A DNA stretch of 64,000 bases from Schmidtea polychroa (lineage: Eukaryota), in contig CM097885.1 of NCBI GenBank assembly GCA_044892525.1, positions 12,340,001 through 12,404,000 of the forward strand, in the 5' to 3' direction. The position numbers were made by a program, and so were the translations under genes. Below the pieces are notes generated by a model, which saw only the letters and a list, made by a program, of their open reading frames with translations, ran no database searches and had not been told where the DNA came from. Shown here in pieces: positions 39,982-61,048 of the stretch (the first letter of the stretch is position 1; every line of letters starts with the position of its first letter).

Positions 39982-40020
39982 CACCTGATGATGACAGGAA
40001 AAGTGTCGAAATTAATCGTG
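39982..40020 (+). ncRNA. Minimal hammerhead ribozyme (inverted pseudo-LTR copy)
   Basis: CACCTGATGATGACAGGAAAAGTGTCGAAATTAATCGTG, with one stem II mismatch. Confidence 0.7.
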
Positions 40021-40820
40021 AAAAGAATGTTTGATTGGCGTTATCTTATAATTAAATCATTGCCATGTATGTTTAACTATTTATTTGATTTTAGTGAAAT
40101 ATTTGTGATAATAGGAATTAAAGATATAATTATAGTCATTTAAAGGGATTTTAAGGAATCTTATTAGACTGAGGAGAATATATGATCTTTAAAAAGTACT
40201 TATCATTAAAATATCAATCTTTAAATATTGATATATTTAGGGGGAAAATGATTCTTTTTAGATGATTTTAGTGGAGAATTCGCTTGAATATACCAATTAT
40301 TTTTATTTAAATGAATTTACTGCTTTATTAGATGTTATCATTAGTCTCTTTTGGAATTTAATGATAATTATTTTTATTGAAGATTGCCGACTTTGATAAT
40401 TGTAATGAATTTATACTGATTTTTTGAATATATTGAGCAATCAGTCAATCAATTTGAGTACATGTATTACTTTTAAAAAAATAATTAAAATTAATTTATT
40501 CAATCTAAATCAATTATCTACTAGATCTTATTTATTAACGTAGTTGATTCATATTAACTTGAATGATTAGTATTTTTTTATTTACTGGATTATTAATGAT
40601 TAGAATTTAAAAGTTTTTCTTGTCCATTAATTACATTTTTATGATATTTATTTTGAATAATTTAAATTTTTACAATTATTTAATCAATTTTTACCAAGTT
40701 ATTGAGACCTTGAGTTCAATTAAATTTTCATCCAATTTTTTCAAGTGAAGTGTGTTTTCTTTTAAAGATCAATTTGTTAGTACATGGTAACTAGTTAATT
40801 GGTAGGTGAGGGTTGAGTGT

Positions 40821-41115: not shown

Positions 41116-42154
41116 AGTAGGTAGTTAAGAGCCCGCTGCAACAATTGGGGGGGGGGGGTAAAATTGTTGCAACTTTTTATTACCCAATTGTTGCAACTCA
41201 CATTTTTTGCTTTCAGGGATTTTTGGTCCAAATTTTATTTATCAGACTATAGTGAGGGGGTCTCCTTGGTCCTGAGAATTTCAATACAAAAAAAATTTTT
41301 TTCAATAGAAAAAGGATGTCTACACAAAAAATCAGTGGTAATTTAAGGTCTCAGGATATTTTCAATACAAAAATCCGATTATCACTTAAAAAGCATAGAA
41401 TATTCGAATTAAATTAAGGTGGGTCTCCTTGGTCCTGAGAACTTCAATAGAAAAAGGCGGTCTACACTAAAAAAGCATGGTAATTTAAGGTCTCAGGATA
41501 TTTTAAATACAAAAAGGCGGTCTACACAAAAAATCAGTGGTAATTTAAGGTCTCAGGATATTTTCAATACAAAAATCCGATTATCAATAAAAAAGCATGG
41601 AATTTTCACACTATAGTGAGGGGGTCTCGATTGGTCCTGGGATTTTCAATACAAAAAGGCGGTCTTTAATAAAAAGCATGGTAATTTAAGGTCTCAGGAT
41701 ATTTTCAATACAAAAATCCGACTACCACTAAAAAAGCATGGATTTTTCTAGGCCAATTCAGGTGGGTCTCCTTGGTCCTGAGAACTTCAATAGAAAAAGG
41801 TGGTCTACACTAAAAAACGTGGTAAATTTTTCAATTAAAGTAAATTGTGGGTCTAAAAAATTGAATTACAGTAAATTATGGTCCTAAAAAATTGAATTAC
41901 AGTAAATTATGGTCCTAAAAAATTAAATTAAAGTAAATGATGGTCCAAATATTTTAAATTAAAGTAAATTATGGTCTAGATAAGTAAATTAAGGTTCAAA
42001 TTTTTTAACTTAAAGTAAATTATGGTCCTAAAAAATTAAATTAAAGTAAATCAAGGTCCAAAATTTTAAATTAAAGTAATGAATGGGCTCAAATAACTAA
42101 ATTAAGGTTCTAAAAAATTAAATTAAAGTTAATTAAGGTCCAAAAATTTAAATG

Positions 42155-42204
<50 letters not shown>

Positions 42205-42474
42205 TTAATAATAATAATAATTCAACAGTTACCAACAATCGGTTACTAAATATTTTTAACTAGGTGCTAACAAATAAGTACCAAATACTTACAACTAGAT
42301 ACCAAGTACTAACTAACTCTCAAACAACCACATACTTACAACTAACTACTTACAATCAATTAAATATTCTTCATTGTATTTTATGAATTGTATTTTTTTA
42401 AATTAATTTTTTATCTATCTTCAAAAATATATTTAATTACAATCAGTAGAAAAACCTTTTTAAATTTAACAAAA
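41116..42474 (+). repeat. Composite repeat beginning with a Maverick-like terminus AGTAGGTAGT
   Basis: The first 30 bp are repeated at 38496; the body is homologous to 36316-38477. Confidence 0.6.
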
Positions 42475-42475
42475 T

Positions 42476-43375
42476 TAACCAAAACAGCCCTCCCAACAAA
42501 AACATACCTCCATTACGCTTAAACCATTAGAAAAACAACATAAAACCTATGTTTTTATAGTATTTTAACCCCATATTTTAAACAACAACCACCCTTAATC
42601 TTTAAAACCTCAAACTCAAAAGCTTCAAACTAAAAAGAGAATAGAAAAGAAAATGGCATTATGAAAAAGTTAGAGGGCTATTTGGGATAGGGCTATATAC
42701 ACACTACTTTTGATCGCAATCAAACTCCGGAGTTGATCTTTATCAGATTATTGATTTTAAATTATATAAATTAAAAAATAAATGAAAAATAGTAAAACTG
42801 CTCTGAGGGGACAGTGGTATTTTTTCTTTCACTGTCCCCTCAACAGTTTTTTTGATCCGGATCATTTCAACCTCTTTCGTTTATCAAATCTCTTCTAATA
42901 TACAAGCTGGCCAGACTCATACATCAGAATCAATCCGATAATAGCAGCACACCTTATTATTCGCTTCTCGCTCGAATACGATTTCATCGGCGTTTTAAGC
43001 GTGCTGCTCGAAAGTACAAATGAATTCGAAAGTGAATCCGAAAGAGGTCCGAAAACAACTGAGAAATAAATGTGCACATTAAAGAATCGATCCGGGGGTG
43101 TTCGAAAGACAGGTGGCGATAATTACCGGTTCGCCACCATCACCCGTTTCAATAATTTTTTTTTCATATTTATGTTTAAAAATAAAATAATTAATAAAAT
43201 AAATAAAATAAATAAAATAAATAAAATAAATAAAATAAATAAAATAAATAAAATAAAATAAAATAAAATAAAAATAAATAAAATAAAATATAAATCTAAG
43301 ATACCCACACTATTATTTTCAAATTTTTAAAAAAAAAAACTAACCACAGTTAGGATTTGAACCACCATCCATTTG
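42476..43375 (+). repeat. Left terminal inverted repeat (tip missing, inner end fused into pPolB)
   Basis: Reverse complement of 58320-59185 and of most of 60083-60970. Confidence 0.9.
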
Positions 43376-46300
43376 TTATAAATGTACAGAATAATGATAA
43401 CAAATGTTTCATCTGGTCAATACTTGCACATTTACATCCTCAAGAATCAAACCCCCAAAGAGTTTCAAAATACAAACAATATGAAAATGAATTAATATTT
43501 CCCAAAGGATTCAAACATCCAATGAAACTAGAAGACATTCCAAAATTTGAAAGTTTAAATAATCTTAAAATTAATATTTATGAACGTGTTAAAGGGAAAC
43601 ATGTTAATAGCAGAGAAATTATTCCAATTTATATTTCAGATTATGAAGTTAGAGATAACGAACCCCAGGATAACACTAGGGAGATATATCTTTTAATCTT
43701 GGAACAACAAAATAATCAACATTATGTTTTAATAAAAAACTTTCAAGCTTTTACATCACCAGAGAATCCAACTAGTGGAGGAGGAACATGTAAAAGATGT
43801 CTTCATTATTCAACAACTAAAAACTCTATGATTAAACATACAAGATTTTGTGAAAAAGATGATCCAGCTTTAATTAAAATGCCTGATAATCCCAAGATGT
43901 ATTTTAAAAACTTTTCAAATTTACTACAAACAGTAGGAGTGCTTCATGGGGACTTTGAATCTATAAATCGTAAACAAGATTTGGTTAAACAATATTTAAA
44001 AATAATAGAAAAAAATAAACTCATGGATTCCTGGAACTCCTCAGGAGAGAAGATGAAACCAGAGAGGATGAAAGCCTTTCTAAGAAAAAGGAATAAACCT
44101 AATAGTGTTAAAAAAACTAAACAATTACCATCTGCTTATAAATTATTATTTAAAAGTAATTATCCTGAACTCATAGAATCTAGAGAATATACATTTCGAG
44201 GAATTTCAGAAACAGAAGTCTTGAATCATTTTACTAAAAGTATAAATGATCTAGAACATGAAATATTTAAAGTATTAAAAACAAACTATCCTCAAAATAT
44301 TTCTAATCAACAACAACAAGAATATGAAAACACTTCCAACTGTTGGATGTGTAAACAACCATTTGAAGAGTCTCCGAATATAAAAGTCCTCGATCATGAT
44401 CATTTAAAAAAGGAAAATAATTATCGAGGAGCAGCTCATAAAAATTGTAATCTTAATTGTCATACTCCTAAATTTGTACCTGTTATATTTCATAATCTTT
44501 TTGGTTATGACATACATCTATTTATTAAACATTTAGCAGCAAATGCTAAAAACTCTTTCAAAGTTATCGGCTTAACAAAGGAAAAATATAAATCAGTTGA
44601 ATATGGGAAATTAAAATTTATAGACTCGTTAAACTTTCTTCAAATGTCTCTAGATGGAATAGCTAAAACAATGAAACCAGAAGATTTTAAAATCACTCGA
44701 GAATTCTTGGAAAAAAATAATATTCCTCTAGAAGAATATCCTACATGTTTAGCAAAAGGAATATATCCTTATGACTATGTTGACTCGTTTGAAAGATATA
44801 ATGAAACAAGTCTTCCTAGCCAAGAAGATTTCTATTCACAACTTCAAAAAAATCATATTACAAATCAAGAATATTCTCGAGCAAATAAAATGTGGGAATT
44901 ATTCAAGTGTAAAACTTTAGGAGAATATACAAGTATGTATTTATCCTTGGATGTTTATATTCTAGCAGATTGCTTTGAAGAATTTACAAAATCTTTTGTT
45001 CTTAAACCTTACAATTATATAACAGCACCCTCTTTTGCTTGGGATACTTTATTATATACCATTTGGACTTCAAATATAGAAGAAGCTGATAAAATTATAG
45101 ATCTTTTAACTAACCTCGATATGTTTAATCTAATTAAAACAAACATTAGAGGAGGAGTCTCTTCAGTAATGGGGAATAGAGAAATAAAAGCTAGAAATGC
45201 AATAACTACTAGCAGAATGCTTTCAAAGACCTCTGATCCATATATAAAAATTAACAATGAGGAATTAAAAGAAATATTAGAAACAATGAAAAATCCTATA
45301 TTTATACTTTATATAGATGCAACAGCTTTATATTCAGGAATTATGACTCAATATTTACCAATGAGTGATTTCACTGAAATAGAGAACCCAACAGATGACC
45401 TTATGAAAGAAATACTTTCAACATCGAAAGATTCTCCAATAGGTTACTTTATAGAATGTGACCTCGACTATCCAGATGATATAAAATCAGGAACAAGATA
45501 TTTTCCTTTAGCTCCCATAAGAAGAAAGATTGATATCAACGAACTCTCTGAATGGCAAATCTCACAAGATAAACCTCCAACAATGAAACTTCTTTGTGAT
45601 CAAACAGATCGAAGGTTTTATCTTTGTCACTATAGACTCCTCCAATTTTATCTCTCACGAGGAATGATATTAAAAAAGTTCATAGTGTCATAAGATTTAA
45701 ACAAGCTCCATTCATGAAAGCTTTTATCGAGGAGAACATTAGGTGTCGAAACATTGCAAAAAGAGAAGGTAACCTTTTTAAAGATAATAATTATAAACTT
45801 TTAAACAATTCAGTCTTTGGGAAAACAATGGAGAATGTTGATAAATATACTCATATTGAACTCCTAACTAATACTGCCAAAGATATTAAGCGTTATAATC
45901 GCATGCTAGGAAAGCCTACATTTAAAAACGCACAAGTATTTTCTGAAAATCTTACTGCAGTAGAATTAAAAAATTATGAGAAAACATATAACAAACCAAT
46001 ATTTATAGGGTTTACAATTTTAGAACTTTCAAAATTACAAATGTATGAAACATATTATAACATCTTACAACCTATATACGGAGCAAATATATCAATGCAT
46101 GCAATGGATACAGATTCAATGTTTTTAACAATAAGAACTCATGATTTACAAAAAGATATGAAAGAAAATCCTATACTTTCAAATTTAATAAATTCATCTG
46201 GAGAACTATTTTCGTTTAAAGATGAAAAACCTTTTACTCCTATAGAAAATGGAATATTTATTCGTGCTAAACAATATTCATACGAAACATTTAGAAACCC

Positions 46301-46889
46301 TGAATTTATAACTAGATCATTTATATTTAAAACTCCAGAAACAGAAGAAACCATTACACATAGATATCCTATATTTCCTAAAGAAGAAAAACCTGTAAAG
46401 GATAACAGATGTAAAGGAATACAGAGAGTGGTTGCAAAGAATCTTTCTCATCAAGATTATATAGATACATTAAATCCAAATCATAAAGATAAAATTGATG
46501 AAATACATCAACTTAAAAGTGAAAACCATGATATTCACTTGATAGAATCTCAAAAAGTATCATTATCAAATTATGATGATAAGAGATTCATACTAAGTGA
46601 TTTAAAGACAACTCTACCTATTGGAAATAATTTAATCCCTATAATAAAAAATCTAGAAAAGTTGAATAAGTTATATGATACAAAGATTACTGATCTTGAT
46701 GTTTATAATGTTGAAACTATTTATCCCGAGAGAGAAATCGAGAAACCTTTATGTTCTCAAGTTTTTAATCCTATATGTTTAGAACTTAAATATTTTAATA
46801 CTGATTCTGAATATATAAAAGGTCTAAGTGATAAAGAATTTAAAGATCATAAATTAATGATTCATAGGTTGGCTTTCAACCATAACTGA
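43374..46889 (+). pseudogene. polB: Protein-primed DNA polymerase B, left copy (N-terminus deleted, frameshift at about 45675)
   Basis: HGDFES and FHNLFGYD exonuclease motifs, KGIYPYDY, YIDATALYS, KLLNNSVFGK, DTDS, KDE, and a DHDH...RGAAHKNCN endonuclease VII-like insert. Confidence 0.95.
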
Positions 46890-46975
46890 AACCAACGATA
46901 TTTAATAATAAAATGTCGACAATTAATTTAAGCAACTATAGCAACTTGATCTACTTTTTTAAAAATTCATCCATT

Positions 46976-47584
46976 TTATAAGTAAGAATTCTTTAACCAC
47001 TTGTCTCGTTTAATTTTTTTAGAATATTCATTAGTTATAATATTTGCACTTTTTAATCTTATAACCTCATTCTTTATATCTTGTATTATTTGATTTGATT
47101 TCATTATTTCACCATCAGTTAAGATTCCATCTTCCAAAGCTTTTAATTGAAATAAAAATAATTTAGAGATTCCTAATTCTATTGATAAACAAACTTCACG
47201 ATATAAACTTTTCTTTTTTGAAGTATAAGATAATGAAACTATTTCAGTTAAAAAACCATCAGCTACAGAAATACTTCCAAGTATTACTGGCGCAAGTGTT
47301 AAAACTGGTAAAGTTATAGGTAAAATAACTGTTAATATTGCAGATGCAAATCCTAAAGAATAACCTATAACTTTTAAAACTGTATTCCCTTTATTCCATC
47401 TATTTTTAATTTTTTTATGATGCTTTAATAAATCTTGTAAATGTAAGGTTTCTGATTTAAATTCTTTTACTCTCATAATTTCAAGTTCTGTGGGAGCTGA
47501 AGGTCCCGAAGGTCCCGAAGGTTTGGGGGAATAATATCCTGATGACAATTCTGGGTAAACTTTTTCTTCTCTTACTTCTTCCAT
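46976..47584 (-). CDS. Maverick two-TM accessory protein with N-terminal YPxL and PSAP motifs
   Basis: Intact 202-aa ORF with a helical N-region, hydrophobic hairpin, KKK, and a KALEDG..T..E tail resembling a recurrent Maverick membrane-protein family. Confidence 0.75.
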   Translation of the reverse strand: MEEVREEKVYPELSSGYYSPKPSGPSGPSAPTELEIMRVKEFKSETLHLQDLLKHHKKIKNRWNKGNTVLKVIGYSLGFASAILTVILPITLPVLTLAPVILGSISVADGFLTEIVSLSYTSKKKSLYREVCLSIELGISKLFLFQLKALEDGILTDGEIMKSNQIIQDIKNEVIRLKSANIITNEYSKKIKRDKWLKNSYL

Positions 47585-47592
47585 TTTAATAA

Positions 47593-48518
47593 TTAAAAAA
47601 ATAAGATTTTATTATCTGGCACCAATACTCGGATATCAAAAGAAACTCTTGTTGAGAGGATATCTTTATACAATTCTCTCAATGCTTTACGAACTTTATC
47701 AACATCAACCTTTTTTTCATAAAATATTAAATCTATATATTGTACAAGTGTGCTTTTAAAAATAATATTCTTACTTTTAACTTTATGTGTTTTATGTGAA
47801 TCATAAGCACTTATTATAACATCACCCTTTTCAAACTTACTATTATAATCACATTTCACAAACCATTTCATTGTTTGATCATCATCATTAAATAAAAAGA
47901 AATAAGGATCAATAATCTTTACAACCATAAAAACACTCCATTCTTTACTATTTGTTGTTATTAAAGTTGGTTCTATAAAATGTTTATATGTATGGGGTAA
48001 TAATGTTTTATTCTGTTCTAATTCAGCAGCTCTTTTTCTAATACTATGTGTGGTGTTAATGTGTGTTGTATGAGATTCTAAATTTGAAAGTCTTTTATTA
48101 AATGATGTAATCATCTCATTTATTATATTATATATTGTATTAAATTTAGTATTCATAATTTGTTTATCTTTAGAATTTAATATACTAGTATTTAACTTTA
48201 CAACTTGTTCAGTTAACAGACTTTGTAACTTGTCAAATTTATCATTAAATCGTTGTTCGATATTATTAAGCTTTGATTCCATTGAATCAATTTTTGTTGT
48301 TAATGAACTTTCAATTCTTGTTGTTGTTAAATCAGTATAATTTTTATTAGCAGCATCACCTTCATCAATTGGTAAAGATAAATCTTTTATCTTGTGTCCA
48401 TTTAAATTTAAATCTTTCATTAACATATTTATTTTCTGTTAAAGTTAATATTTCTTCTGTATTAAACCCTGTTTTTATTGTTCCACCACCTCTATTACAA
48501 GGAATATAAGAACTCATT
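47593..48518 (-). CDS. Fibre/spike-like protein (likely true start 48518, frameshift near 48420)
   Basis: DLNLNGHKIKDLSLPIDEGDAANKNY is a trimeric fibre/adhesin neck-type motif, followed by a coiled coil. An upstream frame reads MSSYIPC...ENKYVNE. Confidence 0.6.
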
Positions 48519-48541
48519 TATTAATAATTTAAAATGAATCT

Positions 48542-49249
48542 TCAAACCTGTTTCAAATGTAAATACATTGAAATCTCTTCTCCATTAAAATCAATCAATT
48601 CTCCTTCTTGATTAAGAATTTTAAAATTAATATCCGTTATATATTTTCTACATAAAGGTAAATAATTTGGAGGATTCATTCTTTCAACTATTTTATATCC
48701 CATAGGAACTGTGTTTGAGGGAAAGGAATATAAAACATTTGTTTGTTTACCATTATTATAAGAACCTGTTATACAATCGCAATGAATATTTATTGTGTTT
48801 GTATTTATTATTTTTATAATATGTTCTGATGTAACTTCAGGTGTGGTATAATGGTTTTGTGTAAATCCTAAAATTGTTCTAAAGAAACTATTATTTTGAA
48901 AACGAATTCCTATATTCTCTAAAGTCATTATACATTTTGAAGTTGGTAAATCCATTTTAATTTTAATGGCTCCATTTGTTTTTTTAGAAAGTATATTATT
49001 TAAATCTTTTATCTCATAAGCTCCAGGTTCTATTATTACAATAACATTTCCTTTTCGACTAATAATGAATTTATTATTATCTTTAGTTATATTAAAAATA
49101 GTATTATAAGCACAAAACCATAATAGACCTAATTCATAATTTAAATCTTGATCTAATTTTATTGAATCTTGAAAGTTTATAGTAAAGTCTGATTCTTTTG
49201 AATTTATAGATAAAGTTCTTGAATATTTATCTGACATTATGTTTACCAT
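48542..49249 (-). CDS. Minor capsid protein (penton, single jelly roll)
   Basis: SDFTINF..SIKLD...YELGL, IEPGAYEI, IHCDCITGSY.NG..TNVLYSF, YLPL and ELIDFNGE are typical of the Maverick minor capsid protein. Confidence 0.88.
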   Translation of the reverse strand: MVNIMSDKYSRTLSINSKESDFTINFQDSIKLDQDLNYELGLLWFCAYNTIFNITKDNNKFIISRKGNVIVIIEPGAYEIKDLNNILSKKTNGAIKIKMDLPTSKCIMTLENIGIRFQNNSFFRTILGFTQNHYTTPEVTSEHIIKIINTNTINIHCDCITGSYNNGKQTNVLYSFPSNTVPMGYKIVERMNPPNYLPLCRKYITDINFKILNQEGELIDFNGEEISMYLHLKQV

Positions 49250-49290
49250 TTTTTTTTAATTATCTTTCGGAAGGTTGCGAAGCTCCATTT

Positions 49291-49749
49291 TCATAGTAGA
49301 GATTTTAAATCATTATAAATTTCTTGGATTAAGGAAGTGAAACCTTCTCCATTATTCAATCTATACAAAACATATAAGCTTAAAATACCACATATTTTAG
49401 TATTATTGGGTTGAACTTGTAAAGAATTAAAAGTATAGTCCTTCGAGGAACTCTTCGAGAGATAGTCTTCAACTTCTTTAGTGGGTTTAATCCCAAAAGA
49501 ATCAAAGTAGATAGGGACTTCGTCCATATATATACAAGCCCAATGAGATCCTTTTTCATTTGAATTTTGATAATTGATTATTATATTCTTTTGAGTGACC
49601 CTTTGACCTTTGACCTTCGGACCTTTCAATTCATCATTCATTAATATTTTTATTTTTAAATTTAAATAATCTGCATAATCTTTTAAATCAAAATTTGTTT
49701 TTGCATTTATTCCAAATGTTTTTAAAAAATCTAATATTGAAGGAGTCAT
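49291..49749 (-). CDS. Adenain-like cysteine protease
   Basis: GSHW, YFDSFG and QVQ...CG give the His-Asp-Gln-Cys catalytic set. Confidence 0.93.
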   Translation of the reverse strand: MTPSILDFLKTFGINAKTNFDLKDYADYLNLKIKILMNDELKGPKVKGQRVTQKNIIINYQNSNEKGSHWACIYMDEVPIYFDSFGIKPTKEVEDYLSKSSSKDYTFNSLQVQPNNTKICGILSLYVLYRLNNGEGFTSLIQEIYNDLKSLL

Positions 49750-50591
49750 TTTATATACTTATTAAATTTATCTTTTGAAATTATTCCTTGTTTTAACAAA
49801 TCTTTAGAAATCTTTAAAATATCAGAATCTAAATTATTATGTCCTGCTTTTTTAGCTGCTAATAGTTTTCTTAATTCAATAAAAAGATTGATTGGGTTTG
49901 CAGCCACAGGCATCCCCTTACCCTCTGTAACAACATAACCCCTTTCATTTTTATTTAAATAATTCTTTAAATCTTGAATATGTTTTGCTTTAGAACTTCC
50001 ATGTATTAATTTTATTAAGTTTAAATATTTATCAATTTCTTTTTTCTTAACATCATCTGGAAGATATCCAGAAATTAATCCATGAAAACCATCTGAAAGT
50101 TCAATGTCTACACGCTCTCTATTCATAAAAGTATTTGTTGAAATAATCGCTGGATTATTTTTTGAATTTAAATATATATAAAATTTTTGATTATTAATTG
50201 TTATTGTTTGAAAACCTCTAGGATCATAACCTATAGTAGGTATAATTGATGGAGCTAGTGATGTATTAATTTTAAAATTAATTGGAGTCTTTAGAGGTGT
50301 TAATCTTGAAAGAAATTCATCTTCTTCTAAATCAATAGTATTTCTACGTTTTCTTAAACCCATTAATCTTGATAATTCCTTTTTAGAAGGTTCTATAGCT
50401 TTAAGTTCAGGGGTTAGAGGAGCTTCTATAGTTTTAAGTTCCTCTATAGCTTTAATTGTTGGCCCCTGTTGTTGTGTTATTACCTCATTTAATATTATAG
50501 ATTCAGCATGTTGAGTTGTATCTTTTTTATTATATTTATCTTGTTCAGATTGTAATTTTTTTAAAAGTGCTAATCTTTCTTCATATACCAT
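49746..50591 (-). CDS. Conserved Maverick core-type protein
   Basis: C-terminal GKG...NPINLFIELRKLLAAKKAGHNN...LLKQGII matches the recurrent Maverick DP..L..RL..L.A...AGN motif. Confidence 0.7.
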   Translation of the reverse strand: MVYEERLALLKKLQSEQDKYNKKDTTQHAESIILNEVITQQQGPTIKAIEELKTIEAPLTPELKAIEPSKKELSRLMGLRKRRNTIDLEEDEFLSRLTPLKTPINFKINTSLAPSIIPTIGYDPRGFQTITINNQKFYIYLNSKNNPAIISTNTFMNRERVDIELSDGFHGLISGYLPDDVKKKEIDKYLNLIKLIHGSSKAKHIQDLKNYLNKNERGYVVTEGKGMPVAANPINLFIELRKLLAAKKAGHNNLDSDILKISKDLLKQGIISKDKFNKYIK

Positions 50592-50613
50592 TTTTATGGT
50601 ATTAAAAATGGTA

Positions 50614-51211
50614 TCAATGGGGTTCGAAGGGCTTCAAGTATAAACCTTTACCATTTTTAGTTTTACAAAGGCATCCATTCTTTAAAGATTTACATATTTT
50701 TTTTAAATCATCTTTATCATCTTTATGTAGAAATTTGATTTTTTAAAAAATCATTTAAACCTCTACCTTTATAAGGATCAAGATAGAGACCCTTTCCCTT
50801 GGACAGAGTCCCCTGAGACTTTTGACCTTCAGACAGAGTCCCCTCATATGGATTAAGATAGAGGCCTTTTCCCTTAGCTTGCCCTACCTTCTTCATTGAA
50901 TCGATTTCAGTTTGTAGTTTTTCTTTTTCTAGGTCTGTCTTTTGAGATTCTTTAGCTTTTTGAACTGTAGTTGCAATTCCTCCAGCTATTCCAGCAGCAC
51001 CTGATAAACCAGCAATGATTGCAGGTATTAAAGCAGCTAATGGAAGAATGCCACCTTCTTTAGTCGAAGAGCCCTTCAGCTTCGCTCTAACTTGTTCTTT
51101 TACATGTTTTCCAATAAAATATTTCTTACCGTCAATTACTACTGATTTATTTTTAATTGAATTTATTAATTCTTACAAAGATTCTTCAGTAGAGGAACTC
51201 TTCGAGGTCAT
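50614..51211 (-). pseudogene. Adenovirus pX-like virion core/membrane-active precursor (not in the ORF track)
   Basis: Hand translation: KEGGILPLAALIPAIIAGLSGAAGIAGGIATTV plus three GKGLYLxP repeats. TAA at codon 13 and a frameshift near 50740. Confidence 0.75.
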
Positions 51212-51226
51212 TTTATAATAAATAAA

Positions 51227-52038
51227 ATGGATGTACGAAGTCCAATAATTTGGAAACCAATTTTAAATAGACATAAATCTAAATTTAATAATAAAGTATT
51301 TCCTGATAATTTTAGATTATTAATTGTTGGTTCTTCTGGATGTGGAAAGAATGTACTTGTTTTGAAAATGTTACTTGAAGATGGTTTTTTAGATTATAAT
51401 AATTTAATCTTTTATTCTACAACCATAAATCAACCAGAATTACAACTTTTGAAATGTGGATTTGAAAATAAATTAACTAAAAAAGCTATAATTGATATTT
51501 TTAAAAATCAACATAGATGTCCTGAAGAAGTTTTTCAACCTTGTGATATGGTTGATTGGTATAAGGAAAAGATTTTAGAATCAGATATTAGTAATAAAAA
51601 TGATTACATCTGTGAAGATGAGGGGCAGGCAGAGGCGATTCAAGTTTATTCTCTAATAAACCTGAAGATGTTTTACATTGTGATTTACTTCCTAAAGATA
51701 AAAAGAATCTAGTTATATTTGATGATGTTGTTAACATGAAAAATCAAGAGATTCAAAAGAGTTACTTTACACGAGGTCGACATAATAATTGTAATGTTAT
51801 TTATATATCTCAAACATATTATGCTTTAGATAAAAATTCAATAAGAAATAATTCCAATTGTTTTATATTTTTTAAATTAGATCGCTGTGATAAGAATATG
51901 ATTTATAATGATTTATTTTCAAATGTTGAACCTGATAAGAATATGTTTGATATGTTTGTTGATAATCATTGGAAAGAAAAATATAAGTATATTTATTTGG
52001 ATAGAGAAGAAGCTGAAATATGGAAAAGTTTGTTTTAG
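51227..52038 (+). pseudogene. A32/FtsK-type genome-packaging ATPase (frameshift near 51648)
   Basis: Walker A GSSGCGKN, Walker B LVIFDD in the shifted frame, and FTRGRHNN...YISQ. Confidence 0.92.
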
Positions 52039-52049
52039 GGCTTGTCGAC

Positions 52050-52478
52050 TTAAAAATCTGTTTTCTGTAGTTCATTATTATAAAATCTACCTAATATTTT
52101 TTCATTATTTAAATCAAAGATGCTATATGTTATTGGAGTTGTATAATGTATGCTATTTATAATAAAAATTTCATTTGTCCATTTTGCTGTGAATCCTTTT
52201 TCAAATTTATTTTTATATTTAAATATTCTTACTCGGTCACCAATTTTAAACTTTGGTTTTTCAATAACATCATTTTCAATATTTACCACTTTAATGGTTT
52301 CAGGCTTCATGGAAGCATTTAAAGGTGTTAATTTTATAGAACTATGTACATCATTATTATATTCATTTACAATCTTTTGTAACAATTCATTGTTCCATTT
52401 TTGTTTTCCAATAGCCGTAAAATATTTCCACATTTTATTTTTTAATGTTCTATTTAATCTTTCAACCACAACTGCTTT
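52050..52478 (-). pseudogene. Retroviral-type (rve) integrase, C-terminal part only
   Basis: AVVERLNRTLK, YNN.VHSSIKLTP, PKFKIGDRVRI, FEKGFTAKWT.E.F and GRFYNNELQ. It is cut at the inversion junction. Confidence 0.92.
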
Positions 52479-53185
52479 TCAATGGAATCAAAGCTTAATA
52501 ATATCGAACAACGATTTAATGATAAATTTGACAAGTTACAAAGTCTGTTAACTGAATAAGTTGTAAAGTTAAATACTAGTATATTAAATTCTAAAGATAA
52601 ACAAATTATGAATACTAAATTTAATACAATATATATTATATATTATATAATATAATAAATGAGATGATTACATCATTTAATAAAAGACTTTCAAATTTAG
52701 AATCTCATACAACACACATTAACACCACACATAGTATTAGAAAAAGAGCTGCTGAATTAGAACAGAATAAAACATTATTACCCCATACATATAAACATTT
52801 TATAGAACCAACTTTAATAACAACAAATAGTAAAGAATGGAGTGTTTTTATGGTTGTAAAGATTATTGATCCTTATTTCTTTTTATTTAATGATGATGAT
52901 CAAACAATGAAATGGTTTGTGAAATGTGATTATAATAGTAAGTTTGAAAAGGGTGATGTTATAATAAGTGCTTATGATTCACATAAAACACATAAAGTTA
53001 AAAGTAAGAATATTATTTTTAAAAGCACACTTGTACAATATATAGATTTAATATTTTATGAAAAAAAGGTTGATGTTGATAAAGTTCGTAAAGCATTGAG
53101 AGAATTGTATAAAGATATCCTCTCAACAAGAGTTTCTTTTGATATCCGAGTATTGGTGCCAGATAATAAAATCTTATTTTTTTAA
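52478..53185 (+). pseudogene. 5'-truncated duplicate of the fibre-like gene
   Basis: Inverted copy of 47593-48286 with a new stop and a short AT duplication near 52635. Confidence 0.85.
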
Positions 53186-53193
53186 TTATTAAA

Positions 53194-53793
53194 ATGGAAG
53201 AAGTAAGAGAAGAAAAAGTTTACCCAGAATTGTCATCAGGATATTATTCCCCCAAACCTTCGGGACCTTCAGCTCCCACAGAACTTGAAATTATGAGAGT
53301 AAAAGAATTTAAATCAGAAACCTTACATTTACAAGATTTATTAAAGCATCATAAAAAAATTAAAAATAGATGGAATAAAGGGAATACAGTTTTAAAAGTT
53401 ATAGGTTATTCTTTAGGATTTGCATCTGCAATATTAACAGTTATTTTACCTATAACTTTACCAGTTTTAACACTTGCGCCAGTAATACTTGGAAGTATTT
53501 CTGTAGCTGATGGTTTTTTAACTGAAATAGTTTCATTATCTTATACTTCAAAAAAGAAAAGTTTATATCGTGAAGTTTGTTTATCAATAGAATTAGGAAT
53601 CTCTAAATTATTTTTATTTCAATTAAAAGCTTTGGAAGATGGAATCTTAACTGATGGTGAAATAATGAAATCAAATCAAATAATACAAGATATAAAGAAT
53701 GAGGTTATAAGATTAAAAAGTTCAAATATTATAACTAATGAATATTCTAAAAAAATTAAACGAGACAAGTGGTTAAAGAATTCTTACTTATAA
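53194..53793 (+). CDS. Duplicate of the two-TM accessory protein (199 aa)
   Basis: Same as 46976-47584 except for one fewer PSG repeat and one A/S change. Confidence 0.8.
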   Translation: MEEVREEKVYPELSSGYYSPKPSGPSAPTELEIMRVKEFKSETLHLQDLLKHHKKIKNRWNKGNTVLKVIGYSLGFASAILTVILPITLPVLTLAPVILGSISVADGFLTEIVSLSYTSKKKSLYREVCLSIELGISKLFLFQLKALEDGILTDGEIMKSNQIIQDIKNEVIRLKSSNIITNEYSKKIKRDKWLKNSYL

Positions 53794-53879
53794 AATGGAT
53801 GAATTTTTAAAAAAGTAGATCAAGTTGCTATAGTTGCTTAAATTAATTGTCGACATTTTATTATTAAATATCGTTGGTT

Positions 53880-56800
53880 TCAGTTATGGTTGAAAGCCAA
53901 CCTATGAATCATTAATTTATGATCTTTAAATTCTTTATCACTTAGACCTTTTATATATTCAGAATCAGTATTAAAATATTTAAGTTCTAAACATATAGGA
54001 TTAAAAACTTGAGAACATAAAGGTTTCTCGATTTCTCTCTCGGGATAAATAATTTCAACATTATAAATATCAAGATCAGTAATCTTTGTATCATATAACT
54101 TATTCAACTTTTCTAGATTTTTTATTATAGGGATTAAATTATTTCCAATAGGTAGAGTTGTCTTTAAATCACTTAGTATGAATCTCTTATCATCATAATT
54201 TGATAATGATACTTTTTGAGATTCTATCAAGTGAATATCATGGTTTTCACTTTTAAGTTGATGTATTTCATCAATTTTATCTTTATGATTTGGATTCAAT
54301 GTATCTATATAATCTTGATGAGAAAGATTCTTTGCAACCACTCTCTGTATTCCTTTACATCTGTTATCCTTTACAGGTTTTTCTTCTTTAGGAAATATAG
54401 GATATCTATGTGTAATGGTTTCTTCTGTTTCTGGAGTTTTAAATATAAATGATCTAGTTATAAATTCAGGGTTTCTAAATGTTTCGTATGAATATTGTTT
54501 AGCACGAATAAATATTCCATTTTCTATAGGAGTAAAAGGTTTTTCATCTTTAAACGAAAATAGTTCTCCAGATGAATTTATTAAATTTGAAAGTATAGGA
54601 TTTTCTTTCATATCTTTTTGTAAATCATGAGTTCTTATTGTTAAAAACATTGAATCTGTATCCATTGCATGCATTGATATATTTGCTCCGTATATAGGTT
54701 GTAAGATGTTATAATATGTTTCATACATTTGTAATTTTGAAAGTTCTAAAATTGTAAACCCTATAAATATTGGTTTGTTATATGTTTTCTCATAATTTTT
54801 TAATTCTACTGCAGTAAGATTTTCAGAAAATACTTGTGCGTTTTTAAATGTAGGCTTTCCTAGCATGCGATTATAACGCTTAATATCTTTGGCAGTATTA
54901 GTTAGGAGTTCAATATGAGTATATTTATCAACATTCTCCATTGTTTTCCCAAAGACTGAATTGTTTAAAAGTTTATAATTATTATCTTTAAAAAGGTTAC
55001 CTTCTCTTTTTGCAATGTTTCGACACCTAATGTTCTCCTCGATAAAAGCTTTCATGAATGGAGCTTGTTTAAATCTTATGACACTATGAACTTTTTTAAT
55101 ATCATTCCTCGTGAGAGATAAAATTGGAGGAGTCTATAGTGACAAAGATAAAACCTTCGATCTGTTTGATCACAAAGAAGTTTCATTGTTGGAGGTTTAT
55201 CTTGTGAGATTTGCCATTCAGAGAGTTCGTTGATATCAATCTTTCTTCTTATGGGAGCTAAAGGAAAATATCTTGTTCCTGATTTTATATCATCTGGATA
55301 GTCGAGGTCACATTCTATAAAGTAACCTATTGGAGAATCTTTCGATGTTGAAAGTATTTCTTTCATAAGGTCATCTGTTGGGTTCTCTATTTCAGTGAAA
55401 TCACTCATTGGTAAATATTGAGTCATAATTCCTGAATATAAAGCTGTTGCATCTATATAAAGTATAAATATAGGATTTTTCATTGTTTCTAATATTTCTT
55501 TTAATTCCTCATTGTTAATTTTTATATATGGATCAGAGGTCTTTGAAAGCATTCTGCTAGTAGTTATTGCATTTCTAGCTTTTATTTCTCTATTCCCCAT
55601 TACTGAAGAGACTCCTCCTCTAATGTTTGTTTTAATTAGATTAAACATATCGAGGTTAGTTAAAAGATCTATAATTTTATCAGCTTCTTCTATATTTGAA
55701 GTCCAAATGGTATATAATAAAGTATCCCAAGCAAAAGAGGGTGCTGTTATACAATTGTAAGGTTTAAGAACAAAAGATTTTGTAAATTCTTCAAAGCAAT
55801 CTGCTAGAATATAAACATCCAAGGATAAATACATACTTGTATATTCTCCTAAAGTTTTACACTTGAATAATTCCCACATTTTATTTGCTCGAGAATATTC
55901 TTGATTTGTAATATGATTTTTTTGAAGTTGTGAATAGAAATCTTCTTGGCTAGGAAGACTTGTTTCATTATATCTTTCAAACGAGTCAACATAGTCATAA
56001 GGATATATTCCTTTTGCTAAACATGTAGGATATTCTTCTAGAGGAATATTATTTTTTTCCAAGAATTCTCGAGTGATTTTAAAATCTTCTGGTTTCATTG
56101 TTTTAGCTATTCCATCTAGAGACATTTGAAGAAAGTTTAACGAGTCTATAAATTTTAATTTCCCATATTCAACTGATTTATATTTTTCCTTTGTTAAGCC
56201 GATAACTTTGAAAGAGTTTTTAGCATTTGCTGCTAAATGTTTAATAAATAGATGTATGTCATAACCAAAAAGATTATGAAATATAACAGGTACAAATTTA
56301 GGAGTATGACAATTAAGATTACAATTCTTATGAGCTGCTCCTCGATAATTATTTTCCTTTTTTAAATTATCATGATCGAGGACTTTTATATTCGGAGACT
56401 CTTCAAATGGTTGTTTACACATCCAACAGTTGGAAGTGTTTTCATATTCTTGTTGTTGTTGATTAGAAATATTTTGAGGATAGTTTGTTTTTAATACTTT
56501 AAATATTTCATGTTCTAGATCATTTATACTTTTAGTAAAATGATTCAAGACTTCTGTTTCTGAAATTCCTCGAAATGTATATTCTCTAGATTCTATGAGT
56601 TCAGGATAATTACTTTTAAATAATAATTTATAAGCAGATGGTAATTGTTTAGTTTTTTTAACACTATTAGGTTTATTCCTTTTTCTTAGAAAGGCTTTCA
56701 TCCTCTCTGGTTTCATCTTCTCTCCTGAGGAGTTCCAGGAATCCATGAGTTTATTTTTTTCTATTATTTTTAAATATTGTTTAACCAAATCTTGTTTACG

Positions 56801-58182
56801 ATTTATAGATTCAAAGTCCCCATGAAGCACTCCTACTGTTTGTAGTAAATTTGAAAAGTTTTTAAAATACATCTTGGGATTATCAGGCATTTTAATTAAA
56901 GCTGGATCATCTTTTTCACAAAATCTTGTATGTTTAATCATAGAGTTTTTAGTTGTTGAATAATGAAGACATCTTTTACATGTTCCTCCTCCACTAGTTG
57001 GATTCTCTGGTGATGTAAAAGCTTGAAAGTTTTTTATTAAAACATAATGTTGATTATTTTGTTGTTCCAAGATTAAAAGATATATCTCCCTAGTGTTATC
57101 CTGGGGTTCGTTATCTCTAACTTCATAATCTGAAATATAAATTGGAATAATTTCTCTGCTATTAACATGTTTCCCTTTAACACGTTCATAAATATTAATT
57201 TTAAGATTATTTAAACTTTCAAATTTTGGAATGTCTTCTAGTTTCATTGGATGTTTGAATCCTTTGGGAAATATTAATTCATTTTCATATTGTTTGTATT
57301 TTGAAACTCTTTGGGGGTTTGATTCTTGAGGATGTAAATGTGCAAGTATTGACCAGACGAAACATTTGTTATCATTATTTTGTATGTTTATAACATTTTT
57401 AGATTTAAAGGGTGTAGGAATATAAGATTTAGGATTAGGTGGTAATCCTCTCCAATAATCAATCACTAAAGTTTGGAAAGAGTTGAATACTAGGTTTGAA
57501 TCTCCTAATTCATTTTCAACCTCTTCTTGTTTTGCTTCTACTGCTTGAATTATTTCTTTGATGGTTTTATCAAATCCTTTAGTTGAAAATAAATATTTAA
57601 AGGGTATTCCAATTTCAACATCTAAAGGTGTTGTCTTTTCTTCTGCTGCTCGCCAGTATTTTGCTTTGATTATAATTTTATATTTTATAACATTATACCT
57701 TGTCGGTTTATAATTTTTTAAAGCTTCAGTGAAAGAATTTTTAATATTTTTTTTATTTTTATTTATATATTCTCCAGGAGTTATAGGTCCATTGATTTCT
57801 AATTGACATTCATCTACATGATTAAAATCATCCCAGTTATATTTTTCTCTTTCAACATGATCAGGTTCTCCTTCTGAATGACATTCCTCATCGTCAGAAT
57901 TTTGTTTTTTATTTTTACATTCTTTATATGTTCTAAATAATAGAAATTTACTTTTGTTGAAAAGTTACAGTGAGAACATGTAAATATTTCTCTATTTTTC
58001 CCGATACAATTTTCAAAATGTTTATTATATCCAGAATGTAGAAATCTTCCTTTACATTTAGGACAAACTTTTGAATTTGTATCATTAAGATTGTTTTCTT
58101 TTAATAAATGAGCTTTCGATTTTAAGTGAGAAATTAATCCAGTTTTATTTTTAAAAACTTTATTACAAATATTACAATTCAT
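53880..58182 (-). pseudogene. polB: Full-length protein-primed DNA polymerase B with N-terminal zinc fingers, right copy (two single-base frameshifts)
   Basis: The ZnF ORF starting at 58182 joins, via a one-base shift near 57922, a frame open down to 55076. A second shift near 55095 joins 55055-53880. Confidence 0.92.
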
Positions 58183-58271
58183 TTTTAGAAAAAAATTTTT
58201 TATTGGATATCCTGTTTTGATTTTTTATGTTTTTATATTTATTTTCATAATGTGACAGTATAAAAAATAAC

Positions 58272-59204
58272 AAAAATCCAAACCTAGATAGCGCAGTGGG
58301 CTAGACTGGCACAGTGGTTCAAATGGATGGTGGTTCAAATCCTAACTGTGGTTAGTTTTTTTTCAACATAAAATAATATTAAAAATTTGAAAATAATAGT
58401 GTGGGTATCTTAGATTTATAAAGTAGTTGTATATTTATTTATTTTTATTTTATTTTATTTATTTTATTAATTATTTTATTTTTAAACATAAATATGAAAA
58501 AAAAATTATTGAAACGGGTGATGGTGGCGAACCGGTAATTATCGCCGCCTGTCTTTCGAACACCCCCGGATCGATTCTTTAATGTGCACATTTATTTCTC
58601 AGTTGTTTTCGGACCTCTTTCGAATTCACTTTCGAATTCATTTGTACTTTCGAGCAGCACGCTTAAAACGCCGATGAAATCGTATTCGAGCGAGAAGCGA
58701 ATAATAAGGTGTGCTGCTATTATCGGATTGATTCTGATGTATGAGTCTGGCCAGCTTGTATATTAGAAGAGATTTGATAAACGAAAGAGGTTGAAATGAT
58801 CCGGATCAAAAAAACTGTTGAGGGGACAGTGAAAAAAAAAATACAACTGTCCCCTCAGAGCAGTTTTACTATTTTTCATTTATTTTTTAATTTATATAAT
58901 TTAAAATCAATAATCTGATAAAGATCAACTCCGGAGTTTGATTGCGATCAAAAGTAGTGTGTATATAGCCCTATCCCAAATAGCCCTCTAACTTTTTCAT
59001 AATGCCATTTTCTTTTCTATTCTCTTTTTAGTTTGAAGCTTTTGAGTTTGAGGTTTTAAAGATTAAGGGTGGTTGTTGTTTAAAATATGGGGTTAAAATA
59101 CTATAAAAGCATAGGTTTTATGTTGTTTTTCTAATGGTTTAAGCGTAATGGAGGTATGTTTTTGTTTGGAGGGCTGTTTGGGTTAGGGCTATATACACAC
59201 TACT
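58272..59204 (-). repeat. Terminal repeat A (pol-proximal end)
   Basis: Ends ...TATATACACACTACT, which is 5'-AGTAGT on the minus strand. Confidence 0.9.
58282..58363 (+). ncRNA. tRNA-like Pol III-type unit 1 (inside terminal repeat A)
   Basis: A box TAGCGCAGTGG (58289), B box GGTTCAAATCC (58332), T8 terminator. Confidence 0.6.
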
Positions 59205-59327
59205 CATGAGTAAATTCTTTATTATAATCAAGATTTAATTTATTTTTTTCTTGAATTTTTATATTATTCATTTTTATATATTAAAATTTACACACACAAA
59301 ATAGGATTAATTAAATATATTAAGTAA

Positions 59328-59409
59328 GCCATTATAGCGGAGTGGGAATAGGCTTCAATTTTATCACCGGGAGTACCGGGTTCAATTTTCGATTTTGGTC
59401 AATTTTTTT
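59328..59409 (+). ncRNA. tRNA-like Pol III-type unit 2
   Basis: 73 nt, with A box TAGCGGAGTGG starting at position 8, a degenerate B box GGTTCAATT, partial acceptor pairing and a T7 run. Confidence 0.5.
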
Positions 59410-59571
59410 CGATATTTTTTTTTCAACGGAATCTGATTCAGCCTACTGATTTTAGTATATATTTAAATTTTCAGATGGATCTGAGTGGTAGTTGTCGAGA
59501 AAATGAATAATTAATTATTAATTTCATCAATAAATAGTCACACATTAACAACTTATTTTATATTGAGTATA

Positions 59572-59652
59572 GCTCTAATAGCTTAGTGGTAATAGCACTC
59601 GACTGCATTGCCAATACCAATGGGTTCAAATCCCATTTCGGTCATTTTTTTT
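59572..59652 (+). ncRNA. tRNA-like Pol III-type unit 3 (tRNA-Cys-like)
   Basis: 73 nt, with A box TAGCTTAGTGG at position 8, D stem GCT/AGC, CT-GCA loop, perfect T arm ATGGG-TTCAAAT-CCCAT and a T8 run. The anticodon stem does not pair. Confidence 0.62.
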
Positions 59653-59807
59653 CAAAATTTTTTAACGAAATATTGATCAGCATACTCGATTTAGTACTTG
59701 TACAAATTTTCAAGGTGATTGGTCAACGGCAACTCTTGGAAATTTAAGATCAAAAACGTTTTAACTACCAAAAATTAATATATCCAATAAAAAAAATATT
59801 TATAAAA

Positions 59808-60050
59808 ATGGATGAGTTAAAAGAAAGAATGAGAAATGAATTGAATGAAGTTAAACATAAGAGAATGAAAAGAAGAGAAGAAGAACCATTAGAATACATC
59901 AAAGAGTTGATGGTAGATAATGAAAAGTATCGACATTTTTATATGAAGGCTGTAGATGTTGCTGATATAAGATTGAAGAAAATGAAACAATTACAGGAAA
60001 GAGTTAAAGAACTTGAATCGATTATTTATATGAGAAAAATCCTAACCTAG
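59808..60050 (+). CDS. Small coiled-coil Maverick ORF (80 aa)
   Basis: ATG ORF ending at the inner edge of terminal repeat B. It shares a 31-nt upstream motif with pPolB. Confidence 0.6.
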   Translation: MDELKERMRNELNEVKHKRMKRREEEPLEYIKELMVDNEKYRHFYMKAVDVADIRLKKMKQLQERVKELESIIYMRKILT

Positions 60051-60990
60051 ATAGCGCAGTGGGCTAGACCGGCACCGTGGTTCAAATGGATGGTGGTTCA
60101 AATCCTAACTGTGGTTAGTTTTTTTTTTTTTTTTAAATTTGAAAATAATAGTGTGGGTATCTTAGATTTATATTTTATTTTATTTATTTATATTTTATTT
60201 TATTTTATTTTATTTATTTTATTTATTTTATTTATTTTATTTATTTTATTTATTTTATTTATTTTATTTATTTTATTTATTTTATTTATTTTATTAATTA
60301 TTTTATTTTTAAACATAAATATGAAAAAAAATTATTGAAACGGGTGATGGTGGCGAACCGGTAATTATCGCCACCTGTCTTTCGAACACCCCCGGATCGA
60401 TTCTTTAATGTGCACATTTATTTCTCAGTTGTTTTCGGACCTCTTTCGGATTCACTTTCGAATTCATTTGTACTTTCGAGCAGCACGCTTAAAACGCCGA
60501 TGAAATCGTATTCGAGCGAGAAGCGAATAATAAGGTGTGCTGCTATTATCGGATTGATTCTGATGTATGAGTCTGGCCAGCTTGTATATTAGAAGAGATT
60601 TGATAAACGAAAGAGGTTGAAATGATCCGGATCAAAAAAACTGTAGAAGGGACAGTGAAAAAAAAAAAAAAAAAAAAAACACCACTGTCCCCTCAGAGCA
60701 GTTTTACTATTTTTCATTTATTTTTTAATTTATATAATTTAAAATCAATAATCTGATAAAGATCAAATAGCCCTCTAACTTTTTCATAATGCCACTTTCT
60801 TTTCTATTCTCTTTTTAGTTTGAAGCTTTTGAGTTTGAGGCTTAAAGATTAAGGGTGGTTGTTGTTTAAAATATGGGGTTAAAATACTATAAAAGTATAG
60901 GTTTTATGTTGTTTTTCTAATGGTTTAAGCATAATGGAGGTATGTTTTAGTTGGGAGGGTTGTGTTGGTTGGGTATATATACACACTACT
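60035..60990 (-). repeat. Terminal repeat B (direct repeat of A)
   Basis: Near-identical to 58272-59204, with an expanded (TTTTATTTA)n and a deletion of about 50 bp at 60765. Ends CACACTACT. Confidence 0.9.
60045..60134 (+). ncRNA. tRNA-like Pol III-type unit 4 (copy of unit 1 in repeat B)
   Basis: Same A and B boxes as unit 1, followed by a T16 run. Confidence 0.6.
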
Positions 60991-61048
60991 AATTTACATC
61001 CTTTTTCACAATTGATAAATGTAAATTTTTCATTAAAAATCATTACAT

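Follow-up and report, generated by a model that had tools for sequence, protein, structure and literature searches.

We analyzed a 64,000-nt stretch of a Schmidtea polychroa contig (the window), which holds an element that is of Maverick/Polinton origin, as identified by pPolB, integrase, packaging ATPase, protease, penton, and terminal inverted repeats with an AGT-type end. The element extends from 42476 to 59204 (16.7 kb), and the features within and around it are as follows.

41118 to 42475, plus strand: left flank, a tandem-repeat-rich element similar to 36318-38497, ending ~20 nt before the end of the 36318-38497 copy
42476 to 43373, plus strand: left terminal repeat, without ~19 terminal bases
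43354 to 46889, plus strand: pPolB, left copy, 5' end missing, in two frames split near 45678
43374 to 43411, plus strand: 38-nt patch adjoining a 924-nt deletion; its 4 substitutions comprise 2 synonymous and 2 Ile/Val changes
43374 to 48286, plus strand: left arm as first described (self-BLAST)
46976 to 47584, minus strand: 202-aa ORF with hydrophobic stretches ("2-TM" gene), with a mirror copy at 53194-53793
47593 to 48426, minus strand: 277-aa ORF (candidate "fibre" gene), spanning the core into the left arm
48287 to 52477, no strand: core, 4,191 nt, single-copy within the window
48542 to 49249, minus strand: penton (minor capsid protein), AlphaFold2 pLDDT 87.9, Foldseek best match mavirus penton (E 1.8e-11)
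49291 to 49749, minus strand: adenain-like protease, from ESM Atlas features only
49746 to 50591, minus strand: 281-aa ORF with no Pfam match, perhaps PZ-like
50723 to 51172, minus strand: small ORF remnant, 149 codons between stops
51227 to 52038, plus strand: packaging ATPase in two frames split near 51644, with Pox_A32 on both pieces, one above cut-off
52050 to 52480, minus strand: integrase C-terminal part, last 142 codons only, DDE triad without its first two acidic residues
52478 to 52480, no strand: junction, 3-nt microhomology TTC
52478 to 57395, minus strand: right arm as first described, with a fibre-like piece containing a stop, the 2-TM ORF, and pPolB in two frames
57396 to 58319, minus strand: right-only stretch of 924 nt, comprising the zinc-finger/pPolB 5' end (frame break near 57922) and the inner terminal-repeat edge
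58272 to 59204, minus strand: right terminal repeat, AGTAGT terminus at 59204, repeated internally in inverted form at 58953
59205 to 60034, no strand: right flank, belonging to the end of a sibling element and carrying tRNA-like units plus a 100-codon ORF, covered in all four sequencing runs
60035 to 60991, minus strand: second terminal repeat, oriented like the right repeat and 2.1% diverged from it
60993 to 61359, plus strand: piece of another pPolB, which lies directly against the second terminus and shares 31% identity with the element's pPolB

Self-BLAST of the window bore out the original prediction of near-identical inverted arms around a core of about 4.2 kb. Specifically, 43374-48286 matches 57395-52478 at 99.29% over 4,927 columns, with 12 mismatches, 2 gaps, and E = 0. 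The predicted arm length of ~4.9 kb described the similarity itself but fell short of its extent: the inverted arms continue beyond 43374 and 57395 to the Maverick terminal repeats (42476-43375 matches 59185-58320 in the inverted sense) and measure 5.8 to 6.7 kb. The left arm lacks a counterpart of 57396-58319, which holds the polymerase 5' end, as well as the ~19 terminal bases. The outer part of its terminal repeat resembles the right repeat, and the inner part resembles the second repeat at 60035-60991. Both ends of the element derive from one terminus, around a single-copy loop, and the inverted homology stops at the element ends, with no duplication of host flank. In layout, junction, gene loss, and divergence pattern, we observe an already damaged Maverick in which the part beyond mid-integrase is replaced by a mirror copy of the polymerase end.

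As predicted, most of pPolB is duplicated in the arms, but its 5' end is found only on the right. The gene matches PF03175 above cut-off (Pfam) and is 46 to 50% identical to a 1,341-aa relative across the relative's length, in separate frames. Mirror copies of the genes labeled 2-TM and fibre are also present, but the labels gained no support (no Pfam match above cut-off), and the stop codon in the right-arm fibre-like piece was absent from the first description. For the protease, the ESM Atlas features (0.97) come with clusters that carry Peptidase_C5 on 13 to 62% of members, and a comparison with PDB sequences returned no match. The integrase piece shares 92% identity with residues 317-463 of a 463-aa relative that bears rve, which speaks to origin only; the window holds no part of the gene outside these residues. 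Judging from the lack of room and of any Pfam match, the major capsid gene is gone, and the longest open stretch in the core is 295 codons.

The gene set (pPolB, integrase, ATPase, protease, and penton) and AGT-type terminus are like those described for Maverick/Polinton elements, as are the terminal repeat of ~930 nt and the span of 16.7 kb, compared with 16.9 +/- 1.7 kb in intact vertebrate elements (PMC8097293, PMC10748475). Inverted arms of 5.8 to 6.7 kb are unlike the 46 to 1,447 nt given in the same two sources. Also unlike intact Mavericks, this copy has a cut integrase, several frame breaks (in pPolB and the ATPase), no major capsid gene, and no readable target-site duplication, and it is not an intact autonomous element.

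Nested Maverick pieces are abundant in the region. The flanks of the two ends are unrelated to each other, and the element interrupted on the right does not resume in the left flank. An uninterrupted form of the right flank, which was seen in contigs from one sequencing run (X7), is absent from the window. The same flank has an Rfam tRNA match (59572-59644, 32.4 bits); ARAGORN found no tRNA. The 6-mer beside 59204 is absent from 42300-42500, although the left end has lost its terminus. A search for polymerase homologues returned no near-identical sibling that could point to the source of the 38-nt patch. That the arms are haplotype variants of one copy is improbable, given the unrelated flanks at the two ends.

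Of the two core boundaries, the left one is a native adjacency and the right one a novel junction. The boundary at 48286/48287 is native because the 277-aa ORF continues across it. The integrase had been predicted to be cut at a 2- to 3-nt TTC microhomology, and the overlap proved to be exactly 3 nt (52478-52480). A match of this length is weak, as 246 of ~9,900 sites offer an equal one, and extended pairing over 20 to 25 nt at the junction is equaled by 15% of sites, which is no better than chance. As read evidence, we used contigs of four of 24 sequencing runs (X1, X2, X5, and X7) aligned to the window. Contigs of X5 and X7 diverge from the window after 52480, and no contig bridges 52478 among the best 32 of 107,499 pieces and the best 15 of 286 joints. 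Nor do the best 24 of 3,111 loose ends or the best 12 of 41 indel rows bridge or exclude the junction. The junction is neither supported nor contradicted by reads. Its exact pattern had 0 matches in JGI metagenomes and IMG/VR, where the host is not expected, and three queries found no related loci in viral contigs. Six metagenome contigs carry related sequence but, at 1.1 to 1.7 kb, are too short for gene order.

The few substitutions and indels anticipated between the arms were all mapped, namely, 12 substitutions, a 9-nt PSG repeat unit, and a 14-nt AT duplication. Four substitutions cluster in the outermost 38 nt, a feature that the first description lacked. The inner arms differ at 8 of 4,866 columns (0.16%), compared with 6 of 714 (0.84%) in the outer repeats (Fisher P = 0.005), such that the outer arm ends are about five times more diverged. 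Six of the eight inner differences are nonsynonymous, where 74% would be expected without selection, and the arm differences thus look unselected. Across the four runs, 20 to 36% of the aligned family contigs are only 90 to 95% like the window. Against this background, both arms carry the same letter at 10 of the 11 variable sites checked, among at least 14 listed (the letters come from the best 40 of 455 rows, and three single-contig rows in the AT repeat were set aside). At 53657 and 56824, the letter common to both arms has zero depth in all four runs, and the one at 56824 alters a residue conserved in three of four homologues. At 59054, the letter common to both terminal repeats makes up 1.6% in X1 and is absent in X2 and X5. 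From these sequence comparisons, the arms look like copies of one already decaying template.

We found no signs that the palindromic form multiplied in the contigs of the four runs, JGI metagenomes, or IMG/VR. The zero-depth letters at two sites argue against amplification of the palindrome, with the caveat that contigs drop rare variants.

The palindromic relic is probably real and is so far a single instance. A misassembly, whether from a fold-back chimeric read or because two loci or haplotypes of a high-copy family were wrongly joined, is improbable. It would account for a junction that lacks a bridging contig among those listed and a match in JGI metagenomes or IMG/VR, and very high family depth eases misjoins. 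However, the right side has 924 nt and a terminus, and the left side has the PSG unit and other repeat lengths, each without a counterpart. The differences consist of substitutions and repeat units, all 16 homopolymers of 6 or more are identical between arms, the first difference lies ~80 nt from the junction, and the flanks are unrelated. A simple read artifact is unlikely, in line with the original view. Furthermore, polishing with family reads would not leave shared letters that are absent from family contigs. We regard as very remote a larger chromosomal inverted duplication (~38.5-62.2 kb) that included host DNA and later eroded. Two Penelope-like pieces (38527-39735 and 61360-62220) lie in opposite orientation and, like the outer terminal repeats, differ by 0.8% (7/863). 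However, they have different outer flanks, each has sequence missing from the other, and a 27-nt motif occurs on both sides of the left one. The remaining flank DNA shows no match between the two sides.

Fusion of two sibling copies, which was part of the original prediction, is a serious rival with the same junction geometry, although we judge it unlikely. Here, two very recent tail-to-tail sister copies of the same defective lineage would have undergone one TTC-joined deletion that took the right part of one, the intervening DNA, and most of the other. Such a deletion would explain why the flanks are unrelated, why the arms end at termini, why no target-site duplication is seen, and why the rest of the nested elements on the right is missing, and it fits a region with many nested Maverick pieces. 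Long palindromes are stabilized by asymmetric central deletion, which also counts in its favor. In Caenorhabditis elegans, several Polinton copies per locus, with rearrangement between copies, have been described (PMC11414722). Yet the explanation needs the two closest relatives (0.16% apart) of a very large family to be inverted neighbors, local hopping of Mavericks was found in none of the literature consulted on them, and the left-end patch would still be required.

The explanation that we favor, as modestly probable, is a microhomology-primed U-turn by which one Maverick copy, defective beforehand, was duplicated. A strand begun at the polymerase end would have stopped or broken inside the integrase gene at 52480, and its last three bases would have paired 4.2 kb behind on the same molecule (48284-48286). 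From there, synthesis would have turned back, copying the fibre-like, 2-TM, and polymerase genes before reaching the terminal repeat, giving a product with two polymerase ends, ~6.7-kb arms, and a 4.2-kb loop. Without a usable integrase or major capsid gene, this product would have been mobile only with a helper. Each arm would then have decayed independently. At the left end, a single repair, probably with another sibling as donor, would have deleted 924 nt and introduced sibling-type letters next to the gap. This second event is needed because the outer repeats are more diverged than the inner arms. In favor of the account are the single novel junction, the low and seemingly unselected divergence of the inner arms, the letters common to both arms, and inverted homology that stops with the element; the weak 3-nt match and the lack of a bridging contig among those listed count against it. 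We infer the single template, the order of events, and the donor repair.

The U-turn could have taken place in either of two settings. One, which we entertain tentatively, is an excised element that replicated with a helper's pPolB and then integrated (copy-back). Against this setting are the unreadable target-site duplication, a left flank that does not continue the element interrupted on the right, and a template that was already dead. The other, a somewhat doubtful prospect, is the chromosome, with a fold-back resolved on a neighboring inverted sibling. A few-kb spacer (4,191 nt) with 3-nt inverted microhomology, a feature of chromosomal fold-backs, is present, and synthesis may have switched to a sibling close to where the arm ends. 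In the work on phi29 polymerase, inverted joints are primed by 2 to 21 nt, mostly within 10 kb; its authors ruled out hairpin or simple template switching as major routes and favored priming on other displaced strands (PMC1855051). Yeast fold-backs are described as mostly resolved on homologous repeats, often oppositely oriented on the same arm (PMC7467729, PMC10622511), and human fold-backs as having a median spacer of 3,428 bp and 2 to 8 bp of microhomology (PMC3907307). The original reading of a copy-back, defective-interfering-like genome fits the geometry, but a chromosomal fold-back or sister deletion gives the same junction, spacer, and microhomology, and spread was not seen. Given the damaged template, the diverged outer ends, the unreadable target-site duplication, and the lack of visible multiplication, that reading is no more than a candidate.

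Other systems share parts of this layout. Butterfly polintons, with gene-containing terminal repeats of ~2 kb, also duplicate core genes inside extended inverted ends; they are reported as full-length, multicopy, and mobile, and they duplicate hexon and adenain (bioRxiv 10.1101/2025.02.07.637071). Unlike them, the element described here duplicates the polymerase end, loses genes, and was seen once. Palindromic derivatives of adenovirus and of yeast linear plasmids are comparable copied-back panhandle forms. In copy-back defective viral genomes, one end is likewise copied back onto the other, forming a helper-dependent panhandle with a single-copy loop; these are described mainly for negative-strand RNA viruses (PMC13506859), and the likeness here is one of sequence layout. 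With human and yeast chromosomal fold-backs, the element shares a few-kb single-copy spacer, few-base microhomology, loss beyond the break, and perhaps resolution on repeats (PMC3907307, PMC7467729, PMC10622511), but its duplicated DNA is confined to the element and ends at or near the termini. Literature searches, which covered articles without their supplements, listed no published account of palindromic or copy-back Mavericks.

The replication mode of Mavericks has been inferred from genes and end motifs (PMC8097293). It is conceivable, though we think it unlikely, that this relic preserves in the germline a copy-back defective genome, which a Maverick's own strand-displacing polymerase produced and the integrase of a helper inserted, and that Mavericks breed defective-interfering parasites of genome-like length (~17.6 kb). 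If the element arose by chromosomal fold-back or sister deletion, it would be an ordinary accident in a repeat-crowded region and an example of Mavericks seeding rearrangements. If it is a copy-back product with private markers, the replication model would become testable in existing assemblies, where recurring junctions with target-site duplications would indicate free, linear, strand-displaced replication and a route to palindromic freeloader elements. The relic may show how palindrome-shaped freeloader elements originate.

The two arms of the element match each other far beyond chance (E = 0). As the original prediction had it, 43374-48286 and 52478-57395 are reverse complements of each other (99.29% identity over 4,927 columns), and the few differences expected between the arms came to 12 substitutions and two indels. 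The core, put at about 4.2 kb, measures 4,191 nt and occurs once in the window. The predicted extent holds for the arms but not for the size of the palindrome, since it reaches terminal repeats beyond both arms:

42476-43373, inverted: left terminal repeat, short of about 19 terminal bases; with 924 nt missing in between, it abuts the polymerase directly
43374-48286: left arm
48287-52477: core
52478-52480: junction of core and right arm, inside the integrase gene
52478-57395, inverted relative to the left arm: right arm
beyond the right arm: 924 nt carrying the polymerase 5' end, absent on the left
58272-59204: right terminal repeat, about 930 nt, with the terminus AGTAGT at 59204

The element spans 16.7 kb. 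The core and two right arms would total about 17.6 kb, which falls within the lengths of intact Mavericks from vertebrates (16.9 ± 1.7 kb; PMC8097293). Each terminal repeat also holds, about 250 nt in, an inverted copy of its own terminus (58952-59204 and 42476-42708), and its outer part resembles a miniature element; the second repeat in the right flank, at 60035-60991, has no such internal copy.

The element derives from a Maverick and is not an intact member of the family. In the AT-rich, eukaryotic DNA of the window, it encodes a protein-primed polymerase (PF03175 match; a 1,341-aa relative is 46 to 50% identical), a penton (modeled with a pLDDT of 87.9 and with the mavirus penton as its best structural match, E = 1.8e-11), an adenain-like protease, and an A32-type ATPase. 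The fibre and 2-TM labels proposed for arm open reading frames (ORFs) were not confirmed, as neither had a Pfam match above the cutoff. The integrase piece is 92% identical to residues 317 to 463 of a 463-aa relative; the remainder is absent from the rest of the window, and thus two of three catalytic acidic residues are gone. A full-length family integrase (P0012) carries an N-terminal PF08398 domain, found in many relatives too. None of the scanned ORFs matched a capsid family, and open stretches in the core reach at most 295 codons, so we take the major capsid gene to be lost. A polymerase frame break is common to both arms, and the core ATPase is broken as well. The shared break (45669-45690 and 55079-55100) sits in an A-run, which we take to resemble a slippery site; it may be either a lesion or a state common in the family.

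The element is probably a real, single, broken relic. It had been argued that the palindrome is not a simple read artefact, and the sequence arguments favor this view. Each arm holds DNA missing from the other, the flanks of the two arms are unrelated, and the arms differ by substitutions and repeat units, with homopolymers of at least 6 bases identical in 16 of 16 cases, all of which makes misassembly quite improbable. We compared contigs from 4 of 24 sequencing runs, in which the Maverick family is very abundant and variable. No contig bridging 52478 appeared among the 32 of 107,499 pieces and 15 of 286 joints listed, a result that carries no weight either way. The left core boundary is native, because the fibre-like ORF crosses it without a break, from core to left arm. 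At the other boundary, family contigs from runs X5 and X7 diverge from the window after 52480 (among the contig ends listed) and the arm starts at 52478, an overlap of 3 nt that bears out the predicted 2- to 3-nt microhomology in the integrase. The site itself is nothing special; three or more terminal pairs are available at 246 of about 9,900 positions, and over 20 to 25 nt, about 15% of positions pair as well as the junction.

Between the inner arms (43412-48286), 8 of 4,866 columns differ. Six of these differences are nonsynonymous, one of them a stop, matching the expectation without selection. Among the 11 of 14 listed variable arm sites that we checked (three single-contig AT-repeat rows were left out), both arms carry the same letter at 10. 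At 53657 and 56824, the shared letter has zero depth in all four runs, and that at 56824 changes a residue conserved in three of four homologs. Together with the arm-shared frame break and the broken ATPase, these letters suggest that decay of the template had set in before its duplication or last homogenization. No amplification of the palindromic form was seen in the four runs, whose contigs drop rare variants. The terminal repeats differ at 6 of 714 columns, above the inner arms (Fisher P = 0.005). Four transitions, each of them synonymous or Ile/Val (P ~ 0.02), cluster in the 38 nt beside the 924-nt gap (corrected P ~ 4e-4). At its inner edge, the left repeat is similar to the sibling repeat at 60035-60991. 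One repair event from a sibling donor would explain the repeat divergence, the cluster, and the sibling-like edge. A letter near the terminus, common to both repeats, occurs at 1.6% in run X1 and is absent in X2 and X5, which counts against two unrelated siblings.

U-turn synthesis is our best reading, held with somewhat more belief than doubt. A strand ending inside the integrase gene would pair with a site 4.2 kb behind it on the same molecule, and synthesis primed there would copy outward to the terminus; the same turn would be copy-back on a free element and fold-back in the chromosome. The free-element route is possible, if doubtful, and is favored because the arms stop at the termini, the rare terminal letter is shared, and the length fits. 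With phi29 polymerase, inverted joints were primed by 2 to 21 nt, and that study preferred priming on other displaced strands to hairpins or simple template switching (PMC1855051). The chromosomal route, unlikely taken singly, is favored because the template was dead, the left flank is mismatched, and spread was not seen. In human fold-backs, the spacers have a median of 3,428 bp and the microhomologies span 2 to 8 bp (PMC3907307), a precedent that lowers the odds for copy-back. Yeast fold-backs were mostly resolved on repeats, often nearby in opposite orientation (PMC7467729 and PMC10622511). Deletion between two inverted sister copies would yield an identical junction and account for the flanks in a single event, and in C. 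elegans, clusters of Polinton insertions with rearrangements have been reported (PMC11414722), but the nearest relatives would have to be neighbors, and we regard this origin as unlikely.

On the right, the element is flanked by the end of a sibling in the same orientation, which itself adjoins a fragment of a different polymerase; on the left, its neighbor is a tandem-repeat element. Nonrepeat flank DNA gave no match across the palindrome axis, and no target-site duplication was readable at the element ends, where the left terminus lacks its last bases. Two pieces outside the element (38527-40051 and 61360-62225), presumably Penelope-like from their RT and GIY-YIG-like translations, had no Pfam match; they are inverted and 0.8% apart, and the left one has an inverted end and is bordered on either side by a copy of a 27-nt motif. 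Duplication of this pair across the axis was rejected on their different flanks, and we read them as separate insertions. tRNA-like units with polymerase III boxes lie in the sibling end region (59205-60034; Rfam tRNA at 59572-59644), where two units, 59316-59473 and 59559-59712, match each other at 69%. Inspection by eye places further such units at the terminal repeat's inner edge (58272-58340). Among the joints listed, X1 and X2 contigs join 58202 to 59258, so some copies may carry this sibling end region between their terminal repeat and polymerase. At 35737-38497, a more diverged Maverick-type terminus precedes a gene-less tandem-repeat element, possibly the end of a nonautonomous satellite, that recurs at 41118-42475. 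Elsewhere are a young LTR retrotransposon (7010-12023; LTRs differing at 1 of 293 nt; pol frame change just before the integrase domain), a Tektin-family exon or gene piece (3391-4119), the only host gene identified among scanned proteins, and inverted pairs at 28584-33233 (29736-30375 versus 32967-32339, 91%; 28584-28862 versus 33233-32963, 82%), probably an older element.

The arm observation is confirmed and extended, and its interpretation is partly supported. In layout, the element resembles a copy-back defective genome (PMC13506859); the proposed likeness to defective-interfering genomes stands for shape, with helper-driven propagation and interference as hypothetical traits. Mobile butterfly polintons, with gene-containing inverted ends of their own (~2 kb), have already been described (10.1101/2025.02.07.637071). 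Our literature search, whose coverage omits most subscription papers, found no copy-back or palindromic Mavericks. Palindromic derivatives of adenovirus and yeast plasmids exist. It is conceivable, if rather unlikely, that this element is a mobilized copy-back genome that would link Mavericks to palindromic satellites.
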